Origin: a virus
IMG/VR virus record: IMGVR_UViG_3300033512_000125
Location: 11,363 to 75,362 of that record
Direction: 5' to 3' (one strand)
Length of the DNA stretch: 64,000 bases
Under the pieces are notes generated by a model. It saw nothing but the letters and a program-made list of their open reading frames with translations. It did not search any database and was not told where the DNA came from. Below, one piece after another: positions 9,058-52,567 of the stretch; the first letter of the stretch is position 1, and each line of letters begins with the position of its first letter. Made by a program: the position numbers and the translations under genes.

Positions 9058-9130
9058 GCCTGTGTAGCTCAAATGGTAGAGCGCCGCTTTTGTACTGCGA
9101 TGGTTGGGGTTTCGATTACTCTCACAGGCT
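9058..9130 (+). tRNA. tRNA-Thr(UGU)
   Basis: GCCTGTG/CACAGGC acceptor; loop TTTGTAC; weak anticodon stem. Confidence 0.8.
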
Positions 9131-9250
9131 CAAAATTAAAAAACATTTTAAAAAAGGTTTGGATTTTAATAGAATTTAAAAATTCCAATAAAGGAATTTG
9201 AAAATTAAGTTTGAAATCGTATATTTACAATATAAGAAATTTAAATAATT

Positions 9251-9268
9251 CGTTATTTGACATATTGG
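9251..9268 (+). promoter_or_regulatory. boxA-like antitermination element
   Basis: CGTTATTTGACATATTGG just downstream of the promoter at 9218. Confidence 0.45.
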
Positions 9269-9277
9269 ATATTATTT

Positions 9278-9361
9278 GGTGGGTATCTGGCTGGATCAAG
9301 AGCGACTCTTGAAAAGTCGTAGCAGGTAAAACTGTTGTGAGTTCGAGTCTCACACCCACTT
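9278..9361 (+). tRNA. tRNA-Ser(UGA)
   Basis: CGACT-CTTGAAA-AGTCG; long variable arm; GTTCGAGTC. Confidence 0.9.
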
Positions 9362-9423
9362 CAAAGTAAGAAGTAAGGTAAGCGCACCTTGTTAAGAGCA
9401 GAACCTCTTAACCTTACTTATTT

Positions 9424-9495
9424 TGCCTGTTCGTATATCGGTTATTACAGATGTTTTTGGCGCATCTAAGGGTGGTTCGATTCCACCACAGGTAA
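9424..9495 (+). tRNA. tRNA-Gln(UUG)
   Basis: U1-A72 acceptor TGCCTGT/ACAGGTA; GATGT-TTTTGGC-GCATC. Confidence 0.85.
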
Positions 9496-9550
9496 CAAAA
9501 ATAGGTTCAAGTCTCTCAGAGAGACATATATTTATATTAAATAATTAGAT

Positions 9551-10012
9551 ATGAAAATATGTGCTAAATGTAAAGAAGAAAAAAACTTATATGAATTTAC
9601 AAAAAATAAATCTCAACCAGATGGGATGCAAAGATATTGTAAAAAATGTAAAAAGGTAAGTGATAAAAAATGGATTGACGAAAACCCTTCTATATGGAAA
9701 GAAGGAAATAGGCTAAAAAATGAAAAGATAAAATTAATATTATCAGAAATTAGAATATCTTTAGGAAGTAAATGCATAAAATGTAGTGAAAGTAGAGAAC
9801 ATTTACTCGATTTTCATCATATTGATAAGAATGATAAAGAAGCTATTATATCATCTATATTATCATATAATGGTTTTGGAACTCAAGCATTAAAAAAAGC
9901 TTATGATGAAGCTAATAAATGTGTTTTATTATGTTCTAATTGCCATCGTGACTTTCATTTCATGGAAAGAACGAATAATATAGATTTGAATAAATATTTA
10001 ACGGGATACTAG
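9551..10012 (+). CDS. HNH homing endonuclease
   Basis: CxxC zinc motifs, LDFHH, CVLLCSNCHRDFH. Confidence 0.9.
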   Translation: MKICAKCKEEKNLYEFTKNKSQPDGMQRYCKKCKKVSDKKWIDENPSIWKEGNRLKNEKIKLILSEIRISLGSKCIKCSESREHLLDFHHIDKNDKEAIISSILSYNGFGTQALKKAYDEANKCVLLCSNCHRDFHFMERTNNIDLNKYLTGY

Positions 10013-10078
10013 GGCAGACGCAAGAACCCACATGTTTTGGGAACATGAGATTCGCCGGTTGGATTCCGGCTATCCCGA
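10002..10078 (+). tRNA. tRNA-Pro(UGG)
   Basis: CGGGATA/TATCCCG; CATGT-TTTGGGA-ACATG; T-loop TTGGATT; overlaps the HNH stop. Confidence 0.85.
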
Positions 10079-10136
10079 CGAGAGAGACTGTTGTTAATTC
10101 ATAGGGCGTATAGAGTCGCTGCGTAGAATTAAATTT

Positions 10137-10207
10137 GCCCTCGAGGCTTTAAAGTGAAGCACCTAGCTTTTAACTAGGGTAAGAAGGAGCATTACCTTCC
10201 GGGGGTA
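10137..10207 (+). tRNA. tRNA-Lys(UUU), atypical T-loop
   Basis: CCTAG-CTTTTAA-CTAGG; T arm GAAGG-AGCATTA-CCTTC. Confidence 0.8.
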
Positions 10208-10300
10208 CAATAAGGTAGAACTAGAGGTTCCTAAATAGTACTTAAAATACCCTAGTAAGTTTTTTAGTTGACTTTTTCTTTAAAAAAGAAGTTTTCATCT

Positions 10301-10375
10301 GCTTCCTTAACTCAGCCTGGTAAGAGTGCTTGTCTTACATACAAGAAGTCGTAGGTTCAAATCCTACAGGAAGTA
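10301..10375 (+). tRNA. tRNA-Val(UAC)
   Basis: CTTGT-CTTACAT-ACAAG. Confidence 0.92.
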
Positions 10376-10458
10376 CGAGGAAATAAATAAGGGTATTACT
10401 ACTCCCTTATCACCCATATTTGAGGTGATTGGTGTAAATATAACACAATTTCCTTTTT

Positions 10459-10532
10459 GCCCTATTAGCTCATTTGGTTAGAGCGCATGTCTTATACACA
10501 TGAGGTACTTGGTTCAATCCCAATATAGGGTA
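10459..10532 (+). tRNA. tRNA-Ile(UAU)
   Basis: CATGT-CTTATAC-ACATG; canonical cloverleaf. Confidence 0.88.
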
Positions 10533-10540
10533 CAAATAAT

Positions 10541-10622
10541 GGGTAGTAAAAGTCATTCGGATATGGCAACGAGTCTGTAAAACTCGTCCTTACTGGGAGT
10601 GGTTCGAGTCCACTATTACCCA
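10541..10622 (+). tRNA. tRNA-Tyr(GUA)
   Basis: CGAGT-CTGTAAA-ACTCG; variable arm. Confidence 0.88.
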
Positions 10623-10628
10623 CAATTT

Positions 10629-10703
10629 GGGAATATAGCGCAGTTGGTCAGTTCGCGCTAGACTGAAAATCTAGAGATATGGGTTCGATTCCCATTATTC
10701 CCA
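10629..10703 (+). tRNA. tRNA-Phe(GAA)
   Basis: CTAGA-CTGAAAA-TCTAG. Confidence 0.92.
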
Positions 10704-10777
10704 CAAAAATCCTGCTTAGAGGGTCAGAGAGGAGAAGTTAAAATTTAATTTAACTAGCCGCTTTAAGTAGGTGAAAT

Positions 10778-10849
10778 TGCCCTCTCGTATAAAGGTTATT
10801 ACGGTTGACTGTTAATCAATTTATCAGAGTTCGAGTCTCTGGGGGGCAG
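10778..10849 (+). tRNA. tRNA-Asn(GUU)
   Basis: GTTGA-CTGTTAA-TCAAT; G73. Confidence 0.9.
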
Positions 10850-10855
10850 CAATAC

Positions 10856-10928
10856 AGGCGTATCGTCTAATTGGTTAGGACGCATGGCTGATAACTATGT
10901 AATCCCAGTTCAAATCTGGGTATGCCTA
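10856..10928 (+). tRNA. tRNA-Ile(GAU)
   Basis: CATGG-CTGATAA-CTATG. Confidence 0.9.
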
Positions 10929-10934
10929 CAAAAT

Positions 10935-11019
10935 GGAGATTTACTCAAACGGTAAAGAGGCTTGTTTGCTAAACAAGTAGGGTGTAATAACTACATGGGT
11001 TCGAATCCCATAGTCTCCG
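10935..11019 (+). tRNA. tRNA-Ser(GCU)
   Basis: CTTGT-TTGCTAA-ACAAG; long variable arm; G73. Confidence 0.92.
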
Positions 11020-11147
11020 CAAAAACCTATTCACCGTCCTCATTACGTGTTTAAGGAACACAGGAGATGAAAGTACGAACGGGGCTCCGTGGTAAAACAC
11101 ATAAAAATTATATAGTACAACGGTAAGTTAAAGGGTTCTTATCAAAT

Positions 11148-11217
11148 ACCGAATGGTCTTGGTGACCGAGAACGGCTCATATCCGATCTTAGATTGGTTC
11201 AAAACCAATATTCGGTA
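11148..11217 (+). tRNA. tRNA(CAU), Met or Ile2, compact D arm
   Basis: ACCGAAT/ATTCGGT acceptor; CGG-CTCATAT-CCG; T arm ATTGG-TTCAAAA-CCAAT. Confidence 0.65.
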
Positions 11218-11289
11218 CAAATCAGGTGGGGAAAATATACCTTAAATGCTAACGGTTAAAATCCATTAGGAGGTCAGCCTGTTTTATAT

Positions 11290-11378
11290 GGTGTGTAAGT
11301 TGGATATTGGTTTGCCAAGCTTGTCTGTGAAACAAGAGTTTAATTTAAAACATGCGGGTTCGATCCCCGTTATACACC
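11290..11378 (+). tRNA. tRNA-His(GUG) with long variable arm
   Basis: Encoded G-1:C73; CTTGT-CTGTGAA-ACAAG; 17-nt variable region. Confidence 0.85.
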
Positions 11379-11484
11379 CAAAAAAATCGTTATATAAATG
11401 CAATCCCTTTGGTAATGCAGAGTAGAACTTTATAAAAGGAGAATGCGCAACTCCGGAGGTTAAGCGATAATTCCTCCATTTTAT

Positions 11485-11556
11485 GTGCTTATAGTTTAAT
11501 TGGAAAAACTTTGAGGTACGATCTCAAGATTATAGGTTCGAATCCTATTAGGCATT
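11485..11556 (+). tRNA. tRNA-Arg(ACG)
   Basis: TTGAG-GTACGAT-CTCAA. Confidence 0.85.
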
Positions 11557-11560
11557 CAAG

Positions 11561-11840
11561 TATTAATTGATGACGTTTATGGACGTTCTTTAGGACGAGA
11601 GTTCGATCCTCTCCAGCTCCACTAATAGTGAGAAAAAATATGGGGCTGTTTGGTTTTGACTATAGTTTAGTAGATAAATCGAGATTAATATTAAAAGTAA
11701 AGGACAACTTTGCAATAGCAGCTTAATAAGCTCATAGCGTTGATGTTGTGTTCGACTTGGTCGCGGTAAAAAGAAGATACAAGGTATAGTCGTTTTATTT
11801 CCCAAGCAATGAGAGTGTAGCGTGATCTACCCAAATTCGA
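11561..11840 (+). ncRNA. ssrA: circularly permuted (two-piece) tmRNA; outer ends approximate
   Basis: 3' acceptor piece GGACGAGAGTTCGATCCTCTCCAGCTCCA (11593-11621) precedes 5' piece GGGGCTG...TTTTGAC (11642); G3.U70; tag frame 11697-11726 VKDNFAIAA*. Confidence 0.88.
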
Positions 11841-11848
11841 ACTTTTAA

Positions 11849-11921
11849 GCCTCTATAGTATAAATGGAAATACAGCTTCCTTCTAAGAAGTATTATACCT
11901 GTTCGAATCGGGTTAGGGGTA
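11849..11921 (+). tRNA. tRNA-Arg(UCU)
   Basis: GCTTC-CTTCTAA-GAAGT. Confidence 0.88.
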
Positions 11922-11930
11922 CAAGTAAAT

Positions 11931-12002
11931 GCGTCTGTCGGCAACGGTAGTCACCAACTCTCCAAAAGTTGAAAAGTGTAGGTTCGAATCCTACCAGGCG
12001 TG
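11931..12002 (+). tRNA. tRNA-Trp(CCA)
   Basis: CAACT-CTCCAAA-AGTTG; G73. Confidence 0.9.
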
Positions 12003-12070
12003 CAAAAATTAATTATTATGAAAAAATTATTAGATGCCTTATAAGTTAATAACTTATAAAAAAGGCAAAA

Positions 12071-12217
12071 ATGAGCAGAACATTCAGAGAAGATCCAAGA
12101 AGACACATTAAAGTACCAGATGGTAAATTTTGGAGAAAATGTAAATGTAATTGGTGTATAAATATACCTTATAGAGATAGATATGGTTTAACCGTTAAAG
12201 AAAATCTATCATTATGA
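12071..12217 (+). CDS. small basic Cys-containing protein (48 aa)
   Basis: MSRTFREDPRRH...CKCNWC; ATGA overlap with the next ORF; below the ORF-track size cutoff. Confidence 0.5.
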   Translation: MSRTFREDPRRHIKVPDGKFWRKCKCNWCINIPYRDRYGLTVKENLSL

Positions 12218-12381
12218 GAATTAAAGATTATACACAAAAAGAGTATAAAAGAGAAGCAGCATTTTATAAATATCCCCCATATTGGGATGAAGGATTAAGA
12301 TTAAAAGGAAGATTACAATCTTTTGAACAAAGAATGTATAAAACTTGGAAACACAATAGAAAAACACAATATAAGTTATGA
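12214..12381 (+). CDS. small basic protein (55 aa)
   Basis: ...RMYKTWKHNRKTQYKL*; ATGA-coupled on both sides. Confidence 0.55.
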   Translation: MRIKDYTQKEYKREAAFYKYPPYWDEGLRLKGRLQSFEQRMYKTWKHNRKTQYKL

Positions 12382-12881
12382 CACAGAAAAAAACATTAGT
12401 AATAGATTCAAGTTATATGCCACGGAGTATTATAAATTCCGAACGTGCTTTTGTAATCTCATATAAAGGAAATGCTGAAATTATATATGAACATAATGAA
12501 AGTTTTGGTTTAGTAAATCCTAATTTGGATATAAAAAAACCATCAATTATTAAAGTTCATAAATATGTAAATCAAAAGTTTCACAAAGTTCCTTTTAGTA
12601 GAGAAAATGTGTTTAAAAGAGATAACTATGAATGTGTTTATTGTGGTTGTTCAAATAGAAAAACATTAACATTAGATCACGTTCATCCAACATCTAAAGG
12701 AGGACAAAATACTTTTGAAAATGTTGTTACTGCTTGTAGATCATGTAATGGTGAAAAAGCAGATTTAACATTACAAGAATGGGGAAAGGATATCCCAGAA
12801 CCAAAACGACCTCATTATCTTATGTTAATGAGAGGATTAGATGAAATACCTAAAGAATGGGAAAAGTTTCTCTTCTTATAA
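12378..12881 (+). CDS. HNH endonuclease (McrA/HNH_5-like)
   Basis: RDNYECVYCG, LTLDHVHP..KGG, NVVTACRSCNGEK. Confidence 0.92.
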   Translation: MTQKKTLVIDSSYMPRSIINSERAFVISYKGNAEIIYEHNESFGLVNPNLDIKKPSIIKVHKYVNQKFHKVPFSRENVFKRDNYECVYCGCSNRKTLTLDHVHPTSKGGQNTFENVVTACRSCNGEKADLTLQEWGKDIPEPKRPHYLMLMRGLDEIPKEWEKFLFL

Positions 12882-12932
12882 AAGGAATTGGATTTTATAT
12901 TTTAAAATCGTATATTTACAACATAGAAATTT

Positions 12933-13001
12933 AAATAATTAGCTTAAGAGTTTAAAGCGTGTCCTAAGACAAGATATGGATTCAATAAACCATATTATTT
13001 A
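12933..13001 (+). ncRNA. tRNA-like element with collapsed anticodon arm
   Basis: AAATAAT/ATTATTT acceptor, D arm GCTT..AAGC, TGTC-CTAA-GACA, T-like arm ATGG..TTCAATA..CCAT. Confidence 0.5.
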
Positions 13002-13144
13002 ATTTTTTTAAAAACAGAAACAATATGAAAAAATTATTAAAAAACTTGTTTTCTAAAATTTCTTTTCGTATGTTTAAAAAGAAAGAAGAGATTCTTAGAA
13101 AAATTGAAATGCCAAGAGAATTTTGGTATTAAATTAAAAAAAAT

Positions 13145-13218
13145 GGTACTGTACCCGAGCGATCTAAGGGAGTCCGTTGCAACCGGAATGTTCGTAAGTT
13201 TGAATCTTACCAGTACTT
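13145..13218 (+). tRNA. tRNA-Cys(GCA)
   Basis: TCCG-TTGCAAC-CGGA; U73. Confidence 0.88.
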
Positions 13219-13225
13219 CAATTAA

Positions 13226-13437
13226 GATTCGACCCTCAACTAATTATTTAGTCAGAGGATGCTACCGAAATTGAAAAGTGGTCTTACATAAGATAAAATA
13301 AGGAGAATGTTAATTCGAATCTAACCGAATCGCACGGTTTAGTAGCTTGAATTGGTAAAGCACCTTACAAGATAAGAAGAGAGAACCGTGAGTTGCGATC
13401 GAAAGATTATAAACGAGCAAACGTCATACTCTTCTTA
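13226..13437 (+). ncRNA. YrlA/Y-RNA-like RNA (rod capped by a permuted tRNA-like domain); ends approximate
   Basis: TAAGG(13299)-AGAAT-T arm(13309-25)-closed acceptor-like loop-TA-D arm(13345-61)-A-CCTTA(13363); flanks pair into a rod 13258-13400. Confidence 0.65.
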
Positions 13438-13440
13438 AAC

Positions 13441-13520
13441 GCCCCAATGGTGAAATTGGTAAACACAGCAGGCTTAAAACTTGCCGTTTCGGCTTGAAGG
13501 TTCGAGTCCTTCTTGGGGTA
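13441..13520 (+). tRNA. tRNA-Leu(UAA)
   Basis: GCAGG-CTTAAAA-CTTGC; variable arm. Confidence 0.92.
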
Positions 13521-13633
13521 CAAGATTATTTACAGGGTAGAAATGCCGCGCTTTGATAGAACTATAGATAACTATTGGAGAAATGGATAAAAATGCGGTA
13601 GGTAAATCCTCTACCCTGTAAATGATTTAATAA

Positions 13634-13708
13634 GCTCGTGTGGCGGAACTGGTAGACGCGCTTGATTTAGGATCAAGATTTTTGTGGGTTCGAATCCCAC
13701 CTAGAGTA
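13634..13708 (+). tRNA. tRNA-Leu(UAG), short variable region
   Basis: CTTGA-TTTAGGA-TCAAG; Leu-type D loop; two acceptor mismatches. Confidence 0.82.
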
Positions 13709-13778
13709 CAAAAAACTTATTTTATATCGAAGGAACTTATAAAGGAAGCCCTAGTGTAATATTTAATAAGTTTTAATT

Positions 13779-13854
13779 GCGGAATTCGCATAGTGGTCGA
13801 TTGCGCTACACTTCCAATGTAGAATCACCGTGGGTTCGAATCCCACATTCCTCT
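13779..13854 (+). tRNA. tRNA-Gly(UCC)
   Basis: CTACA-CTTCCAA-TGTAG; U73. Confidence 0.9.
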
Positions 13855-14029
13855 CAAAAAACTTCTATTATCCATGAGGCGTTAGCGACACCGAGAGTAG
13901 GGTAACAAGAAAGGCGTACTAGATAATGCTAATAAGGCTAGTTATGTGTTACTCGTTGGGATTAGAAGTTTTTTTAAAATAGATTTGGATTTTAAAAATT
14001 AAGTTCATATATTTATAATATAATAATTT

Positions 14030-14101
14030 GACGCATTAGTGAAGTGGTTAACACGAGATACTTTCTATATCTAGGCACGGGTTCGAATCCCGTATGCGTT
14101 A
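14030..14101 (+). tRNA. tRNA-Glu(UUC)
   Basis: AGATA-CTTTCTA-TATCT. Confidence 0.9.
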
Positions 14102-14109
14102 CAAATAAT

Positions 14110-14182
14110 GGGTCGTTAGCATAAATGGCAAATGCGCTTGGTTTGCAACCAGGAAGATAGAGTTCGAATCTCTACGTATCCA
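14110..14182 (+). tRNA. tRNA-Ala(UGC)
   Basis: CTTGG-TTTGCAA-CCAGG; G3.U70; irregular lower acceptor stem. Confidence 0.82.
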
Positions 14183-14251
14183 CAACCGTATTAAGAGGTT
14201 AAAGTTTAATCTACTTGACAGATTTGACAACTTGGAACAGACAAGTATTTT

Positions 14252-14327
14252 GGTCCTATAAGCATCGTAGGTTGATGAATTGCGTTGTCACCGCTCTAAA
14301 ATGAGGGTTCGAAACCCTCTAGGACCG
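14252..14327 (+). tRNA. tRNA-Asp(GUC)
   Basis: GGTCCTA/TAGGACC; loop TTGTCAC; G73. Confidence 0.85.
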
Positions 14328-14342
14328 CGGAATAAAATAAAT

Positions 14343-14418
14343 CGCGAGTGGGAGGCATAGAGTTTTCGCAAGTCTCATAAACTTGACATAAGACAGGGGC
14401 GGTACCTGTACTTCGCTA
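14343..14418 (+). tRNA. tRNA-Met(CAU), initiator-like with atypical T-loop
   Basis: CGCGAGT start with a 1:72 mismatch; CAAGT-CTCATAA-ACTTG; T arm ACAGG-GGCGGTA-CCTGT. Confidence 0.7.
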
Positions 14419-14642
14419 CTAATGACTAAGAGGTGCTCAGAGTGTTTGTAACTTCACCATTAAAGAGTTATGGTTGGTTCTCCTACGATTTTACAGAAGG
14501 GGACCGTAGGGCAAAAGGATGTTACCAACTCCTCCACGGAAGGTTGCTTTATAGTTTCATCTGGTAAGACAGTAATGGTTTAATTTTTAAGAAAAAAACA
14601 ACCGTTAAAATCTAGTTACAGTAATCTCATGTAATGAAAATT

Positions 14643-14716
14643 GGCCTTATAGCTCAGTTGGTTAGAGCAGATGACTCATAATCATCAGGTCACAGGTTCG
14701 AGTCCTGTTGGGGCCA
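14643..14716 (+). tRNA. tRNA(CAU), Ile2-like
   Basis: GGCCTTATAGCTCAGTTGGTTAGAGCA...CTCATAA; body resembles bacterial tRNA-Ile2. Confidence 0.85.
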
Positions 14717-14750
14717 CAATTAATATTCAAAAACTAATTAAATTAAGATC

Positions 14751-15668
14751 ATGAGAAGAAATTCACTTTCTACAAAAGGTTTATCCCTATCTACAGCTCA
14801 ATCAATTTCTAACCTTTGTAATCAAAGAAGTAAAGAAATTAATTCTAAGTTAGAGCAAACAAATAATTTTTCCCGTACACTTAAAATTGATGGGGAAATT
14901 TATACCGAAACTGAGTCATCTCCATTGCCAGGAGATGTGGTATCTCTATTGAGAGAGAAGTCTCGTTTACATGCTTCCCAAGCTTTTCTTATGGAAAATA
15001 TTAAAGCTAAAGATGAAATGATTAATTCTATTAAAAAAGAATCATTTCAGTTTGAAGTAGAACAAACACAAAGAGGTCAATTAGAATCTCCTAAACTAAA
15101 TCAACTTGTTGATGAAAGTTGGGGTTGGGAACAGTTATCTATCCAAGAATATAACGAATTTCTTGAAGCAGAATCATATGCAGCCCATATCGGATAATAT
15201 ATTCATAATGGAGGTAAGTTAGATCGTTTAAGAAAAGAATTACCTAATATTAAAACATTGGAATTTTTTGAGGTTGAAGCAGGTAAGAAAACACCTATAA
15301 AAGTAAATATTCATCATACCTCAGAACAATTAGTTACTCTTCATGAAGAATTAGCTGCTTTGCATAGAGACTATGAGAAAAAAGTGAATTACTTTAAATC
15401 AAAAGTAAAAAATGCTGTTACAACAGAAAACGCTCGTATTTCGAAAGAAAATGGTGTTGAACAAGCTCGTGTGAATGAAATTAATAATAATATTAATGAA
15501 GTTTATCAAAAAGAATTCCAAGGTTGGGCAGCAAATTATAGAAAAGCTTTACAAGACTTTGAGGAAAAAAGACAAAATAGAATTCAAGAAGCAGTAGCTT
15601 TAAGAATTGAAGTACCATCTCAATTTCAAGGTGTGGTAGATGAATTTACTAAACAATTAGGTGAATAA
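14751..15668 (+). pseudogene. single coiled-coil protein gene (~305 codons) interrupted by in-frame TAA at 15195-15197
   Basis: Track ORFs 14751..15197 and 15258..15668 are in the same frame; the 20 intervening codons are open (AAHIG*YIHNGGKLDRLRKELPNIKTLEFF). Confidence 0.7.
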
Positions 15669-43788: not shown

Positions 43789-44532
43789 ATGAATAAAGGT
43801 ATAATAATATTAGGCTCAGCAGCATCAGGAAAAAGTCACTTTGAAGAACAATTATATAATTATTTATATAATAAACGTAATAGACACGAATTTAGGGTAA
43901 ATCCCGATTATTATGTAGAAGATGAAGAATCTGAATATTATAATAATCCATTAAGGGCTTATAATTATGTTTACAAAACCATTCTACCAGAAATAATTGA
44001 TTTAAATGGTAATTTTATACTACAAAACACCGGAGCTAATACGAAGACTCTACGTAAAATAATTGATACTCCCAACTATCAATTTAAAGCCGTGATGGTA
44101 TATTGTAATCCAATTATTGCGTTTATACGCAATTTTTCCCGTGAACGAAAACTTCCAAAACAAGTATTATTAGAGAATTGGCTTAAAGTATATTCTCAAA
44201 TAGAAGAATATCAAGATATATTTGGGAAGGATAATATTTATATTTACGAGACAGAATATACAGAAGATGAATTATTTACTTTATATCGATATCAAACAGG
44301 ACGTATGAATATTAAAGATGGATTACTAAAAATGGATGTCGAATCTTCATTTAAAAAGGAATCTACAATTTACACTCCTGAACAAATAAAGATAAAAGAA
44401 CAAAAATTTAAAGAAATTTTAGAGAAAGTTTCAAATAGATTATTTGAATTAGAAGACGAGAATAATTATTTAGCACCGATGGGAGTTAATATAGAATATA
44501 TAAAAGAAGAATTAAATAAATGGATAACTTAG
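43789..44532 (+). CDS. P-loop kinase (zeta-toxin/AAA_33-like)
   Basis: GSAASGKS Walker A, VNPDYY, RNFSRERKLP. Confidence 0.7.
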   Translation: MNKGIIILGSAASGKSHFEEQLYNYLYNKRNRHEFRVNPDYYVEDEESEYYNNPLRAYNYVYKTILPEIIDLNGNFILQNTGANTKTLRKIIDTPNYQFKAVMVYCNPIIAFIRNFSRERKLPKQVLLENWLKVYSQIEEYQDIFGKDNIYIYETEYTEDELFTLYRYQTGRMNIKDGLLKMDVESSFKKESTIYTPEQIKIKEQKFKEILEKVSNRLFELEDENNYLAPMGVNIEYIKEELNKWIT

Positions 44533-49909: not shown

Positions 49910-51109
49910 ATGGAACAAACACAACCTGTAAGTATTGTAACTATTAAACAAAAATCTCCTTTATTTAAAGACGGACAACCTGCAGAACGAATTGAATTAA
50001 TTGAATTAGAGGAAAATGGATTTACTTTAGTATCTCAAAAAGATTTATATCAAGTAGGAGATAAAGCCGTTTATATTCAACCTGATTATAATTTATCTGA
50101 TATTTCTTTATTTGAAGGATTTTTACGTCCTGGAGGAGATGTTTCTAAAAGCATGTTAGGTAAAGTTGAGGGAGTACCACTTCGTATCAGAGCAAAGAAA
50201 TTTAATTTCTCTCGTGAAGGAAGTATTGATCCTGTTTATAGTAATGGGATTTTATTACCAAGAAAAGACGTAGCTGATTATATTTGGAAAAACGATTATA
50301 CAGATGATAACTTATTAATTCATTTTTATCAATTAGATCTTACTAAAGAACTTGGTATTACCAAATGGGAAGAACCTGAAGTACGAGATAAAGCTGGTAA
50401 TAAAGTAGGTGGAGCACGAGTATTTCCTGAAGGGCTTTATAAAACAGATGAAACCAATATCAATAATTTATGGGGTCATCTTGAAAATAAAATTACTTAT
50501 CCTGTTACTTTAATTGGTACTGAAAAAGTTGATGGTTCTAGTATTACTATTGGTGTAAAAAATGGTAAAGGATTTATTTGTTCTCGTAACCAACAATTAG
50601 ACCTTATGGTTAAAAAACATGTTGGTAGACGTGAAAAAACCTTGTTGGAAAAAATAATGTTTTGGACTAATCCAGATTTAAATCTATATAAGGAAGCAGA
50701 AAATGATTCTGATTTTGTTAAATATGGTAAACCTTATTTAGAATTACTAGAGGGATATAATGATGTGGTTTTACGTGGTGAATTAAATGGCTCGCACCTA
50801 AAAGGATCAGGTAATAAAAATAATCCAAGTTCAAAATTACCCCCAAATATCCAATTTTTCGGAATAGATTATATCAAACAAGGAATTAGTGAAAAAGTAG
50901 ATTATAATACTTTTAAATATTTTACTAATAAATTAGGTTTACCAACAGTTAAAGAAATATTTGCTAAAGAATTTAACTCAAAACAAGAAATCGAAGATGA
51001 ATGTAATAAGTTCTTCAAAACCACCCTCACAGAAGGTATTGTGATAAGAACAGAAGATAGTAAATTTTCAGCAAAATTTATGTCATTAGAATATGACAGT
51101 AAAAAATAA
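49910..51109 (+). CDS. RNA ligase (Rnl2/DRB0094-like)
   Basis: TEKVDGSS (motif I KxDG), RGELNG, FFGID, EGIVIR, AKFMSLEY; N-terminal OB-like domain. Confidence 0.85.
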   Translation: MEQTQPVSIVTIKQKSPLFKDGQPAERIELIELEENGFTLVSQKDLYQVGDKAVYIQPDYNLSDISLFEGFLRPGGDVSKSMLGKVEGVPLRIRAKKFNFSREGSIDPVYSNGILLPRKDVADYIWKNDYTDDNLLIHFYQLDLTKELGITKWEEPEVRDKAGNKVGGARVFPEGLYKTDETNINNLWGHLENKITYPVTLIGTEKVDGSSITIGVKNGKGFICSRNQQLDLMVKKHVGRREKTLLEKIMFWTNPDLNLYKEAENDSDFVKYGKPYLELLEGYNDVVLRGELNGSHLKGSGNKNNPSSKLPPNIQFFGIDYIKQGISEKVDYNTFKYFTNKLGLPTVKEIFAKEFNSKQEIEDECNKFFKTTLTEGIVIRTEDSKFSAKFMSLEYDSKK

Positions 51110-51884
51110 AATTATGAAAAAATTTGTAATAGGTGACATACATGGTAATAGAAAGGGTTTGATTCAATGTCTCGAACGCGCTAATTTTGATTATAAAAAT
51201 GATCATTTAATTACACTTGGGGATATTGTTGATAGAGGACCTGAGACTTATGAATGTATTGAAGAACTCCTAAAAATAAAAAATAGAATTGATATTAAAG
51301 GGAATCATGATAAGGTTTGGGAAACATGGATTCATACCGGTTTTCATGAGTTAGATTTTCATCACGGAGCTATTTCTACTATACAGTCATATGTAGATCA
51401 CATTGAAGACGATTTAGGATATAATAGATTTATTAAATATAATAATGGAGGATTGATAACTAATTTATCTAAAATAGATATTCCTAAATCCCATATTAAT
51501 TTTTTTAAAAATCAAGTATATTATTATATAGATGAAGAAAATAGATGTTTTGTTCATGGTGGTTTTGATAGATATGAGTCTATTATAAATCAAGATGAAG
51601 AAAATCTTATTTGGGATAGAAGTTTAGTTAGATCTGTTTTATCTTATAAACCATTTAATGGAGATAAATTTAAAATATTAGATGATTTTAAAGAAATTTA
51701 TGTAGGCCACACACCAACAATATCTTGTGGGTTAGGAATATCTCCCCACTTTCAAGGACCTGTAATTATGATGGATACTGGAGGGGCTTATCCTGAAGGT
51801 AAAGTAACAATAATGAATATAGATACTAAAGAATATTTTCAAAGTGATTTAGGAAATACTCTATATGAAAAATTTTCAAGGTAA
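51093..51884 (+). CDS. metallophosphoesterase (Ser/Thr phosphatase-like)
   Basis: GDIHG, GDIVDRG, GNHD, FVHGG, VGHT, DTG. Confidence 0.9.
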   Translation: MTVKNKIMKKFVIGDIHGNRKGLIQCLERANFDYKNDHLITLGDIVDRGPETYECIEELLKIKNRIDIKGNHDKVWETWIHTGFHELDFHHGAISTIQSYVDHIEDDLGYNRFIKYNNGGLITNLSKIDIPKSHINFFKNQVYYYIDEENRCFVHGGFDRYESIINQDEENLIWDRSLVRSVLSYKPFNGDKFKILDDFKEIYVGHTPTISCGLGISPHFQGPVIMMDTGGAYPEGKVTIMNIDTKEYFQSDLGNTLYEKFSR

Positions 51885-52567
51885 TGAAAAAATTAACATT
51901 TATAAGTGATACTCATACTAGAGAACAATTAATCACCCCAGACTTACCTGGGGGTGATTTTTTATTTCATTCTGGAGACATAATGAATTCAGGTTATAAT
52001 CCTCAAGATATAGAAAATTTTTGTTCTTGGTTTGATTCTTTATCTAACTACAAATATAAAATTTTCATAGCAGGTAATCATTGTCGCTTATTTGAAGATA
52101 ACCCACAACAGGCTTTAGAAATAGTAAATAAATATAAAAATATTATATATTTACAGGATTCATTTGTTGTATTAGATGGTATAAAAATATATGGATCTCC
52201 ATGGCAACCTGAATTTTATAATTGGGCTTTTAATTTACCTAGAAATGGATATGGATTAGCCTCTAAATGGGAAATGATCCCTAAAGATATAGATATATTG
52301 TTAACTCATGGTCCTGCTTATGGTTATGTAGACACGGTAAAGGGAAGAGAATATGATCATTTAGGATGCGAATTATTACAAGATAGAATACTACAAATCC
52401 AACCTAAAATCCATTCATGTGGTCATATTCATTCAGGTTATGGTTATACATCAAATAAAAATACCCACTTCTTTAATGCATCTGTTTTATATGAAGATTA
52501 TAATTATAGTCAAAAACCATGGAATGTTGAGTGGGATAAAAAAACTAATATATTAAATATCCTTTAA
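51884..52567 (+). CDS. metallophosphoesterase
   Basis: SDTH, HSGD, AGNH, LTHGP, CGHIH. Confidence 0.9.
   Translation: MKKLTFISDTHTREQLITPDLPGGDFLFHSGDIMNSGYNPQDIENFCSWFDSLSNYKYKIFIAGNHCRLFEDNPQQALEIVNKYKNIIYLQDSFVVLDGIKIYGSPWQPEFYNWAFNLPRNGYGLASKWEMIPKDIDILLTHGPAYGYVDTVKGREYDHLGCELLQDRILQIQPKIHSCGHIHSGYGYTSNKNTHFFNASVLYEDYNYSQKPWNVEWDKKTNILNIL

Follow-up and report, generated by a model that had tools for sequence, protein, structure and literature searches.

The window analysed here is a 64,000-nucleotide stretch of one strand of the virus record IMGVR_UViG_3300033512_000125 (positions 11,363 to 75,362). The element under study lies between two tRNA genes on the plus strand of this window, tRNA-Cys(GCA) at 13145–13219 (assigned with ARAGORN) and tRNA-Leu(UAA) at 13441–13521 (ARAGORN and Rfam tRNA). 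A first-pass annotation made from the sequence alone had read this interval as a Y-RNA-like RNA of the YrlA type. The window belongs to a 90-kb IMG/VR contig with a completeness rating of about 56%, 44% of the genome being missing. The source is an uncultured T4-like, Flavobacterium-type phage, which encodes a Gp23 capsid protein and a T4-type terminase, and whose baseplate protein shares 47% identity with that of the 160-kb Flavobacterium phage vB_FspM_immuto. The tRNA array (9058–14717) is contained in the contig as a whole and comprises 23 tRNA genes, with no tRNA-Lys among them (ARAGORN). At the Rfam gathering thresholds, only tRNAs and a permuted tmRNA are recognized in the window. No protein gene adjoins the element. 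On its upstream side the nearest genes are an open reading frame of 36 aa and one for an HNH endonuclease, and genes for HNH and other homing endonucleases are found in and near the array.

The boundaries of the element were defined by comparison with relatives. About 90 related loci, designated below by L numbers, were gathered via two neighbouring proteins and searched with BLAST and a covariance model (CM), R1. In a near-identical wastewater strain (a contig of public run X25), position 13220 is joined to 13374, so that exactly 153 nt are absent, with one mismatch in 150 nt of flank. In L007, the closest relative, the stretch is also entirely absent and tRNA-Cys leads straight to a hairpin at 13374, the 67 nt of 13374–13440 being retained with 95.5% identity. 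Conversely, L022:6933–7086 aligns with 13220–13373, again in the interval between tRNA-Cys and tRNA-Leu(UAA), and has no such hairpin. The homologues in L022, L134 (from a metagenome) and L150 end 3 nt past the closing stem described below, right at the first base of tRNA-Leu, and tRNA-Cys precedes the element in L022 and L134 as it does in the window. These comparisons therefore delimit a discrete accessory cassette of 153 nt at 13221–13373 (plus strand) within the tRNA array, present or absent among near-identical strains and consisting of module A, module B and a 6-nt tail, and separate it from an independent hairpin at 13374–13437, module C. With the 23-mer of the A/B junction only the L022 contig matched in an exact-pattern scan of viral contigs, and with the T-loop-to-D-arm pattern there were no matches. 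A metagenome scan with a 19-mer gave 37 loci, 36 of which belong to an unrelated repeat family; the sole homologue is L134.

Module C (13374–13437, plus strand) is a spacer hairpin outside the cassette, with the stem AAGAAGAG/CUCUUCUU and a minimum free energy (MFE) of −14.3 kcal/mol (z −2.5). It occurs in L007 without modules A and B, and is absent from L022, L134 and L150. Its position bears on the rod that had been proposed as a Ro60-binding site (13279–13284 with 13382–13388, and 13258–13265 with 13392–13400). Every string listed by the first-pass annotation, including the rod segments and the alternative helices, is found where it was placed. However, the rod amounts to a possibility of pairing and was dropped, since it draws its 3′ strands from module C, which L007 keeps alone. 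Moreover, 13281–13294 forms a covarying hairpin of its own, P2, and L022, L134 and L150 have no such 3′ strand. The alternative helices are likewise present, but TAAGAAGAG/CTCTTCTTA is the stem of the independent module C hairpin.

Module B (13299–13367, plus strand) is a circularly permuted tRNA-like domain. The closing stem, which is in the place of an anticodon stem, is formed by TAAGG (13299–13303) and CCTTA (13363–13367). Between these strands are arranged a V loop AGAAT (13304–13308), a T arm GTTAA-TTCGAAT-CTAAC (13309–13325) with an A·C mismatch of 13313 and 13321, a closed acceptor-like hairpin of 17 nt (13326–13342) in which four of the six pairs are formed, U8-A9 (13343–13344), a D arm GCTT-GAATTGGTA-AAGC (13345–13361) and A26 (13362). 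YrlA is the sole meaningful Rfam family match in 13200–13460. The match covers exactly 13299–13369 and model positions 21–89 of 114 with 22.3 bits (E 0.013 in the search of 261 nt, and E 0.001 in the 90-kb contig, where it is the best YrlA match). The score is below the gathering score of 69 and comes from the tRNA-like part only. Weaker YrlA matches on the contig overlap annotated tRNA genes; in the CM searches, matches of this sort turned out to be junctions of tandem tRNA genes that imitate the permuted order.

The same plan is shared by seven copies. Since MAFFT alignments of module B (A3 and A6) misalign the D arms, the seven copies were segmented by hand and counts were taken from a CM alignment. 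Each copy has a 5-bp closing stem, a V loop of 3–5 nt, a T stem of 5 bp whose loop reads UUCNAUN, an acceptor-like hairpin of 4–9 pairs with a loop of 4–6 nt, a UA linker, a 4-bp D stem with GG in the D loop, and one nucleotide (three in L014) between the D arm and the closing strand. The closing stem is UAAGG/CCUUA in the window, L022 and L134, GAAGG/ACUUC in L010, AAAAG/CUUUU in L014 and AUAGU/ACUAU in L033, and all five pairs are formed in the window, L022, L134, L150, L014 and L033. The T stem is GUUAA/CUAAC in the window, GUCAG/CUGAC in L022, AUAGG/CCUAU in L134, GUGGG/CCCAC in L010 and GUGAG/CUCAC in L014. The D stems of the same five copies are GCUU/AAGC, GUGU/ACAC, GUAU/UUAC, GUGU/ACAU and GUUU/AAAC, respectively. 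In L022, L134 and L150 the closing stem and module A are as in the window, whereas the T, acceptor-like and D stems differ, yet still pair. For the module B copies of L022 and L134 the minimum-energy structure itself is a cloverleaf-like shape. In A8, a model-fitted alignment of six copies, 94.1% of the cells are paired compared with 34–47% when the partners are slid; both sides are changed in 17 of 29 pairs, and none of 500 shuffles is as good. The permuted tRNA-like domain claimed for 13299–13367 is thus borne out by the YrlA match together with compensatory changes in five relatives (L022, L134, L150, L010 and L014), and the covariation that had been named as a check is present. Module B is not confined to the cassette. 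It stands alone in L014 and in L010, in the latter in a tRNA-sized slot of the interval between tRNA-Phe and tRNA-Asn, and L033, L042 and L053 carry it upstream of tRNA-Cys, attached to an AU rod of 11 bp.

The interval 13299–13367 is therefore occupied by a covarying tRNA body that is closed at the acceptor and has no anticodon. Its T arm, D arm and elbow are intact. Because a loop seals the acceptor end, and both termini are located at the place of the anticodon loop, module B can neither be charged nor decode. It could still be asked whether it is a circularly permuted tRNA gene, whose transcript would be processed, perhaps with ligation by a phage RNA ligase, to a working tRNA, possibly the missing tRNA-Lys. 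The array does lack tRNA-Lys, the phage encodes an RNA ligase and two phosphoesterases, and one element of L013 has GCCA after the acceptor 3′ strand. The phage also has a genuine circularly permuted, two-piece tmRNA inside the array at 11575–11726 (Rfam RF04321, tmRNA_permuted, 61.8 bits; gathering score 47). In this tmRNA the T arm and the 3′ strand of the acceptor precede GGGGCUG, and the tag frame ends in ...AIAA*. However, the flanks of module B, AUAAAA and CAAGAU (AAU in the homologues), form no 7-nt anticodon loop with U33. CCA and the discriminator are absent, the acceptor-like hairpin is 6–9 bp long and has a tiny loop of 4–6 nt, and a normal tRNA-Lys gene is located elsewhere in the array of L007. 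We consider a working permuted tRNA extremely improbable. A two-piece tmRNA, which is marked by a G3·U70 acceptor stem, a degenerate D arm and a tag reading frame, was also rejected as an identity for the cassette. The D arm of the cassette is complete, a tag frame is lacking, and RF04321 matches only the separate locus.

Module A (13220–13298, plus strand) precedes module B and is a clade-conserved structured leader, as defined by CM R1 and RNAalifold. The single-stranded AAGAUUCGA is followed by hairpin P1 (13234–13258), an invariant linker GCUACCGAAAUUGAAAAGUG containing CGAA at 13266–13269, hairpin P2 (13281–13294, loop ACAU) and the tail AAAAU. Searches with R1 find module A in about 21 related loci; it is a conserved element of about 94 nt in about 20 relatives, usually right after tRNA-Cys and always abutting the 5′ end of a long-arm tRNA, tRNA-Leu(UAG) or tRNA-Ser. 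RNAalifold on 17 copies gives P1 and P2 with 18 pairs, in 7 of which both sides are changed, and the single-stranded blocks AAGGUUCGA and AGCUACCGA(AA)UUGAUAAGUG are nearly invariant. The cultured Flavobacterium phage immuto has a module A that is 91% identical and lies directly 5′ of tRNA-Ser. This locus (L103:5915–6070; NC_055915.1, 20739–20894, gp238) is annotated as a 51-aa hypothetical protein, which is probably a mis-annotation of module A RNA. Module A was not found in 401 sampled Bacteroidota genomes, in a search that had no positive control, and an Rfam scan of the module A region in L033 at E ≤ 10 gave no family. The linker (TCGGTAG and similar) has no consistent tRNA target as an antisense sequence. 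A 9-bp complementarity between this linker and module B in L022 is reduced to a generic GUAG in the other copies.

The conservation of module A might instead be at the DNA level, with a sigma-70-type promoter (TTGAAA-17 nt-TAAAAT, 13271–13299) and an operator-like inverted repeat in its spacer serving the downstream tRNAs. The scan match is 10/12, and the hexamers are within the conserved blocks of module A. Nevertheless, 23 such sites were found against 27 expected in shuffled sequence, and the inverted repeat covaries as an RNA stem does, including G·U pairs. In the relatives the −10 box ends 0–3 nt before the tRNA, so that transcription would start inside the tRNA, and in the window the start would fall inside the closing stem; in phage immuto the −10 box is not kept. 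The hosts are probably Bacteroidota, whose promoters have a consensus different from the sigma-70 type. A DNA-level role appears very improbable. Given where the implied start falls and the loss of the −10 box in immuto, a role of module A at the RNA level is favoured.

The relation to Y RNAs depends on the features outside the tRNA-like domain. YrlA RNAs (RF02553) are bound by Ro60 and carry pseudouridine-55 and dihydrouridine; their 5′ and 3′ ends pair into a rod with the Ro60 site, for which GNCGAAN0-1G at the 5′ side is the putative contact motif, and they are encoded up to about 4 kb from a Ro60/TROVE gene on the same strand (Chen et al. 2014, PMC4201824). A YrlA structure is described in a preprint (10.1101/312249). 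In the cassette, the motif GNCGAAN0-1G is absent: the linker ACCGAAAUUG (13264–13273) has CGAA, but it lacks the first G, and its closing G is 3 nt away. A 5′/3′ rod is not co-inherited, its would-be 3′ strand belonging to module C and its 5′ strand overlapping the covarying P2. The statement that the window contains no TROVE gene is correct and extends to the whole 90-kb contig. The same holds for the cassette-bearing L150 genome (175 kb, rated 100% complete), for the L022 contig (rated 80% complete) and for four related genomes of 151–168 kb rated 93–100% complete, three of them at 100%; those rated complete measure 162–168 kb. A search for DUF2828 (PF11443) gave no match in the contig and was uninformative, since the control genomes gave none either. 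DUF7873, a family whose accession is unconfirmed, had no match when 60 open reading frames, namely all those of 195–340 aa on the contig, were scanned against Pfam.

TROVE genes do occur in more distant relatives of up to 430 kb, and there the accompanying RNAs can be compared directly. One clade (L021, L018, L019 and L032) encodes a 526-aa protein in the tRNA array (Pfam TROVE, 40.8 bits), and a second clade (L047 and L013) encodes a 541-aa protein with 37% identity to it. In both clades TROVE is preceded on its own strand, at a distance of 60 nt to 1.6 kb, by YrlA-like tRNA mimics scoring 32–33 bits (regions L021:9560–12919, L013:1–2350 and L047:7400–9766). Their common handle combines a covarying closing rod (GUCAGAGU/ACUCUGAC versus AAAUAGU/GCUAUUU) with the bulge GUAGYGA, the GUUACUUCG box and a 3′ strand reading UUUCUC. 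On the plus strand, the GUUACUUCG/GUUACAUCG box has 3–6 copies in each of the TROVE-bearing loci L013, L018, L019, L021, L032, L047, L105 and L106, with single matches in three other loci. It has none in the window and the rest of the contig, and module A has GCUACCGA instead. In L105 (2146–2950 of the Bacteroidota metagenome-assembled genome JAZKFS010000001.1), a bacterial TROVE gene is immediately preceded by four YrlA-like RNAs in tandem, which match the full model with 28–46 bits and have such a handle too, and by two further handle-like repeats with no YrlA match; five of the six repeats carry GUAGYGA...GUUACUUCG and all six end in UUUCUC. The Rfam YrlA model thus under-detects Bacteroidota Y RNAs, because these four TROVE-adjacent RNAs score below the gathering score.

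Two observations on the TROVE-bearing relatives are added here. Besides the L013 element with GCCA after the acceptor 3′ strand, one of their Y-like RNAs combines a closed acceptor with an entire anticodon arm behind it, the loop of which is CUAAAAA or CAGUAAA. In addition, a 148-aa protein (14751–15197 in the window), which is encoded beside the tRNA array of about 180 related contigs and for which searches of Pfam, PHROGs and a protein Atlas gave no usable match, has a homologue of about 305–307 aa in these relatives, directly beside the Ro60 gene (L021:10001–10924 and L047:10001–10918).

A true YrlA-type Y RNA could be imagined if Ro60 came from the host or from the 44% of the phage genome that is unsequenced, with module A as a divergent Ro60-binding module. 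Several points are in line with this. YrlA is the only Rfam family matched, genuine TROVE-adjacent RNAs of Bacteroidota also remain below the gathering score, TROVE genes of both clades lie in the tRNA array near similar tRNA-like elements, and the linker that precedes the domain is single-stranded and contains CGAA. A post-hoc motif, TAC..CGAA..ATTGAAAG (as RNA, UAC..CGAA..AUUGAAAG), occurs four times in 3.2 Mb, namely in the window, in L022 and in the TROVE-adjacent RNAs of L013 and L047 only, which is a weak link. TROVE is present in 20 of 301 sampled Bacteroidota genomes. On the other hand, this proportion means that only about 7% of these genomes could provide a host Ro60, so that a host-encoded partner is possible but a priori unlikely. 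The contig holds the whole tRNA array, where relatives keep TROVE, and has no such gene, nor do the complete-rated L150 genome and the four further genomes. The Ro60-linked handle (GUUACUUCG box, closing rod and UUUCUC 3′ strand) and the 5′/3′ rod are absent, the homologues stop 3 nt past the closing stem, GNCGAAN0-1G is unmatched, and nhmmer with module A against the TROVE loci gave no significant similarity. We regard a true Y RNA as improbable, though less so than a promoter. The cassette has neither a Ro60/TROVE gene nor a Ro60-type handle. The identity proposed at first is thus partly supported: the topology and the sole Rfam family match agree with YrlA, whereas the rod, GNCGAAN0-1G, the GUUACUUCG handle and TROVE are lacking, and the suggested checks gave a sub-threshold YrlA match on the tRNA-like part and no TROVE in the contig or in L150. 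Judging from sequence comparison, the cassette RNA seems to be like the tRNA-mimic half of YrlA rather than a Ro60 Y RNA.

What is observed in the cassette is a single permuted tRNA body, module B, fused to module A, a structured leader specific to the lineage. The reading to which we incline, at somewhat better than even, is that the cassette specifies an accessory non-coding RNA in a polycistronic tRNA operon, which would be released by tRNA processing and act as a Ro60-independent tRNA mimic. The RNA would be cut from the tRNA precursor by the enzymes that trim the neighbouring tRNAs. Processing of the 3′ end of tRNA-Cys would set its 5′ end, and the RNase P cut at the 5′ end of tRNA-Leu would set the 3′ end of the RNA upstream. 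The predicted product measures some 150 nt for L022, L134 and L150; in the window phage it would include module C and reach about 220 nt. Module B may present a tRNA-shaped surface to a factor that binds tRNA bodies, such as a processing or modifying enzyme or a host nuclease targeting tRNAs, and may also serve as a 3′-end cap against exonucleases. Module A may be a specific handle for a putative partner.

Several observations weigh against this reading of the cassette as a working tRNA mimic. The cassette is dispensable in nature, as L007 and the X25 contig demonstrate. No partner protein for the cassette RNA was identified, and no RNA runs are among the public runs listed with the element, the X25 and X27 contigs being probably DNA. 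Fitting of the A8 alignment to the model biases it towards the structure. The T and D arms are very divergent between near-identical cassettes, and part of the "covariation" could reflect repeated recombination of tRNA genes, not selection on one RNA. It should also be noted that the window copy is the weakest of the family, with the A·C mismatch in the T stem, an acceptor-like hairpin in which four of six pairs are formed, and a G at position 14 where A would be expected. The MFE structure of its module B alone is not a cloverleaf (z −0.8), and with such an unconvincing fold the copy could be decaying.

The weak state of the window copy also speaks for a rival reading, in which the element is a functionless scar left when tRNA genes were duplicated in tandem or recombined, so that the 3′ half of one copy became joined to the 5′ half of the next and is now drifting. 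The presence/absence polymorphism among near-identical strains and the homing endonuclease genes in and near the array are compatible with such an origin, and ordinary junctions of tandem tRNAs give similar sub-threshold YrlA and R1 matches. In half-by-half BLAST against about 1900 phage tRNAs, the sole match is an 18-nt similarity of the D arm to tRNA-His of relatives. However, the closing stems are fully paired in six copies, unlike those junctions, and a source-tRNA search found the anticodon stem CCUUA/UAAGG in no tRNA of about 100 loci. The T and D stems remain paired through many double changes, and the acceptor-like hairpins have 6–9 bp closed by 4–6 nt, in place of 7 bp plus discriminator plus spacer. 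The element also recurs at different positions of the array in several lineages. Furthermore, the X27 contig, from a near-identical strain, has A13313G, which turns the A·C mismatch of the T stem into a G-C pair, while its other three changes in the cassette are at unpaired positions. A scar is in our judgement unlikely, though it is the rival to be taken most seriously.

A wider reading concerns the permuted tRNA body as such. The domain looks swappable, because Ro60-encoding relatives attach a similar tRNA-like plug-in to the Ro60 handle. It may tentatively be viewed as a plug-in carried on various handles: the Ro60 handle in the 430-kb relatives, module A in the Immutovirus-like phages of 160–175 kb, a bare AU rod, or none. 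Module A would then be an undescribed phage RNA family with a partner of its own. We hold this generalization more loosely than the Ro60-independent tRNA mimic itself. Y RNA-type tRNA mimics are usually viewed as partners of Ro60, and here the same module is found in phages that have no Ro60 gene and a different conserved handle. Together with the clean 153-nt presence/absence, this points to an independent role for the tRNA-mimic domain, for example protection, processing, or action as a decoy or tether for tRNA-binding factors, and it bears on why bacterial Y RNAs mimic tRNA. Module A, for its part, is an abundant unannotated structured RNA that is present in a cultured phage-host pair, phage immuto and Flavobacterium sp. 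LMO8, and open to bench study.

Other features of the array and contig deserve a brief description. The 112-nt spacer between tRNA-Leu(UAA) and tRNA-Leu(UAG), 13522–13633, has a long closed fold with a 19-bp outer stem (−37.5 kcal/mol, z −6.2), equalled by none of 200 shuffles. It is conserved in L022 (7168–7270), and L134 has another sequence with a similar long closing stem at this place; no Rfam family reaches its gathering score in the spacer. At 12933–13001, just 3′ of a CGTATATTTAC motif that is also found at 9208, lies a putative unpermuted tRNA look-alike with a 4-nt "anticodon loop", the sequence of which is conserved in L007. The permuted mimic on an AU rod in L033, L042 and L053 occupies a similar place upstream of tRNA-Cys. 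Further long spacers of 200–310 nt at 10080–10300, 11021–11290 and 14329–14642 contain no tRNA genes or long open reading frames. Outside the array, a possible RNA-repair set is encoded at 49910–52567, where an RNA ligase gene (PF09414; PHROG "RNA ligase") is followed by genes for two calcineurin-like metallophosphoesterases, and a weak match to a Zeta-toxin-like P-loop kinase is located 6 kb upstream of this set (43789–44532).

The tRNA cluster of phage T4 contains stable structured non-tRNA RNAs, species 1 and 2 RNAs (rnaC/rnaD), which are co-transcribed and cut out by tRNA-processing enzymes. The cassette RNA would resemble them in this respect; module A is specific to the Immutovirus-like lineage. 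With YrlA the cassette shares the permuted topology, that is, a closing stem in place of the anticodon stem, the V loop, a T arm with a canonical T loop, a loop-closed acceptor-like stem, U8-A9 and a GG-containing D arm. Further shared features are the location on the tRNA strand of a phage and CGAA in a single-stranded 5′ region. The cassette differs in having no 5′/3′ rod, no GNCGAAN0-1G and no Ro60 gene, and in being fused to an unrelated conserved leader. The Ro60-linked RNAs of L013, L021 and L105 have the same layout of T arm, closed acceptor and D arm, and the phage ones also belong to the same phage family and the same place in the tRNA array. However, their covarying closing rod, GUAGYGA bulge, GUUACUUCG box, UUUCUC strand and adjoining TROVE gene are all absent from the cassette. 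Pairs of Ro60 and Yrl RNA are known from phages, for example Thermus phage phiLo (PMC12135203). The permuted tRNA mimic itself is thus of a known kind, and what distinguishes the cassette is module A and the clean presence/absence polymorphism.

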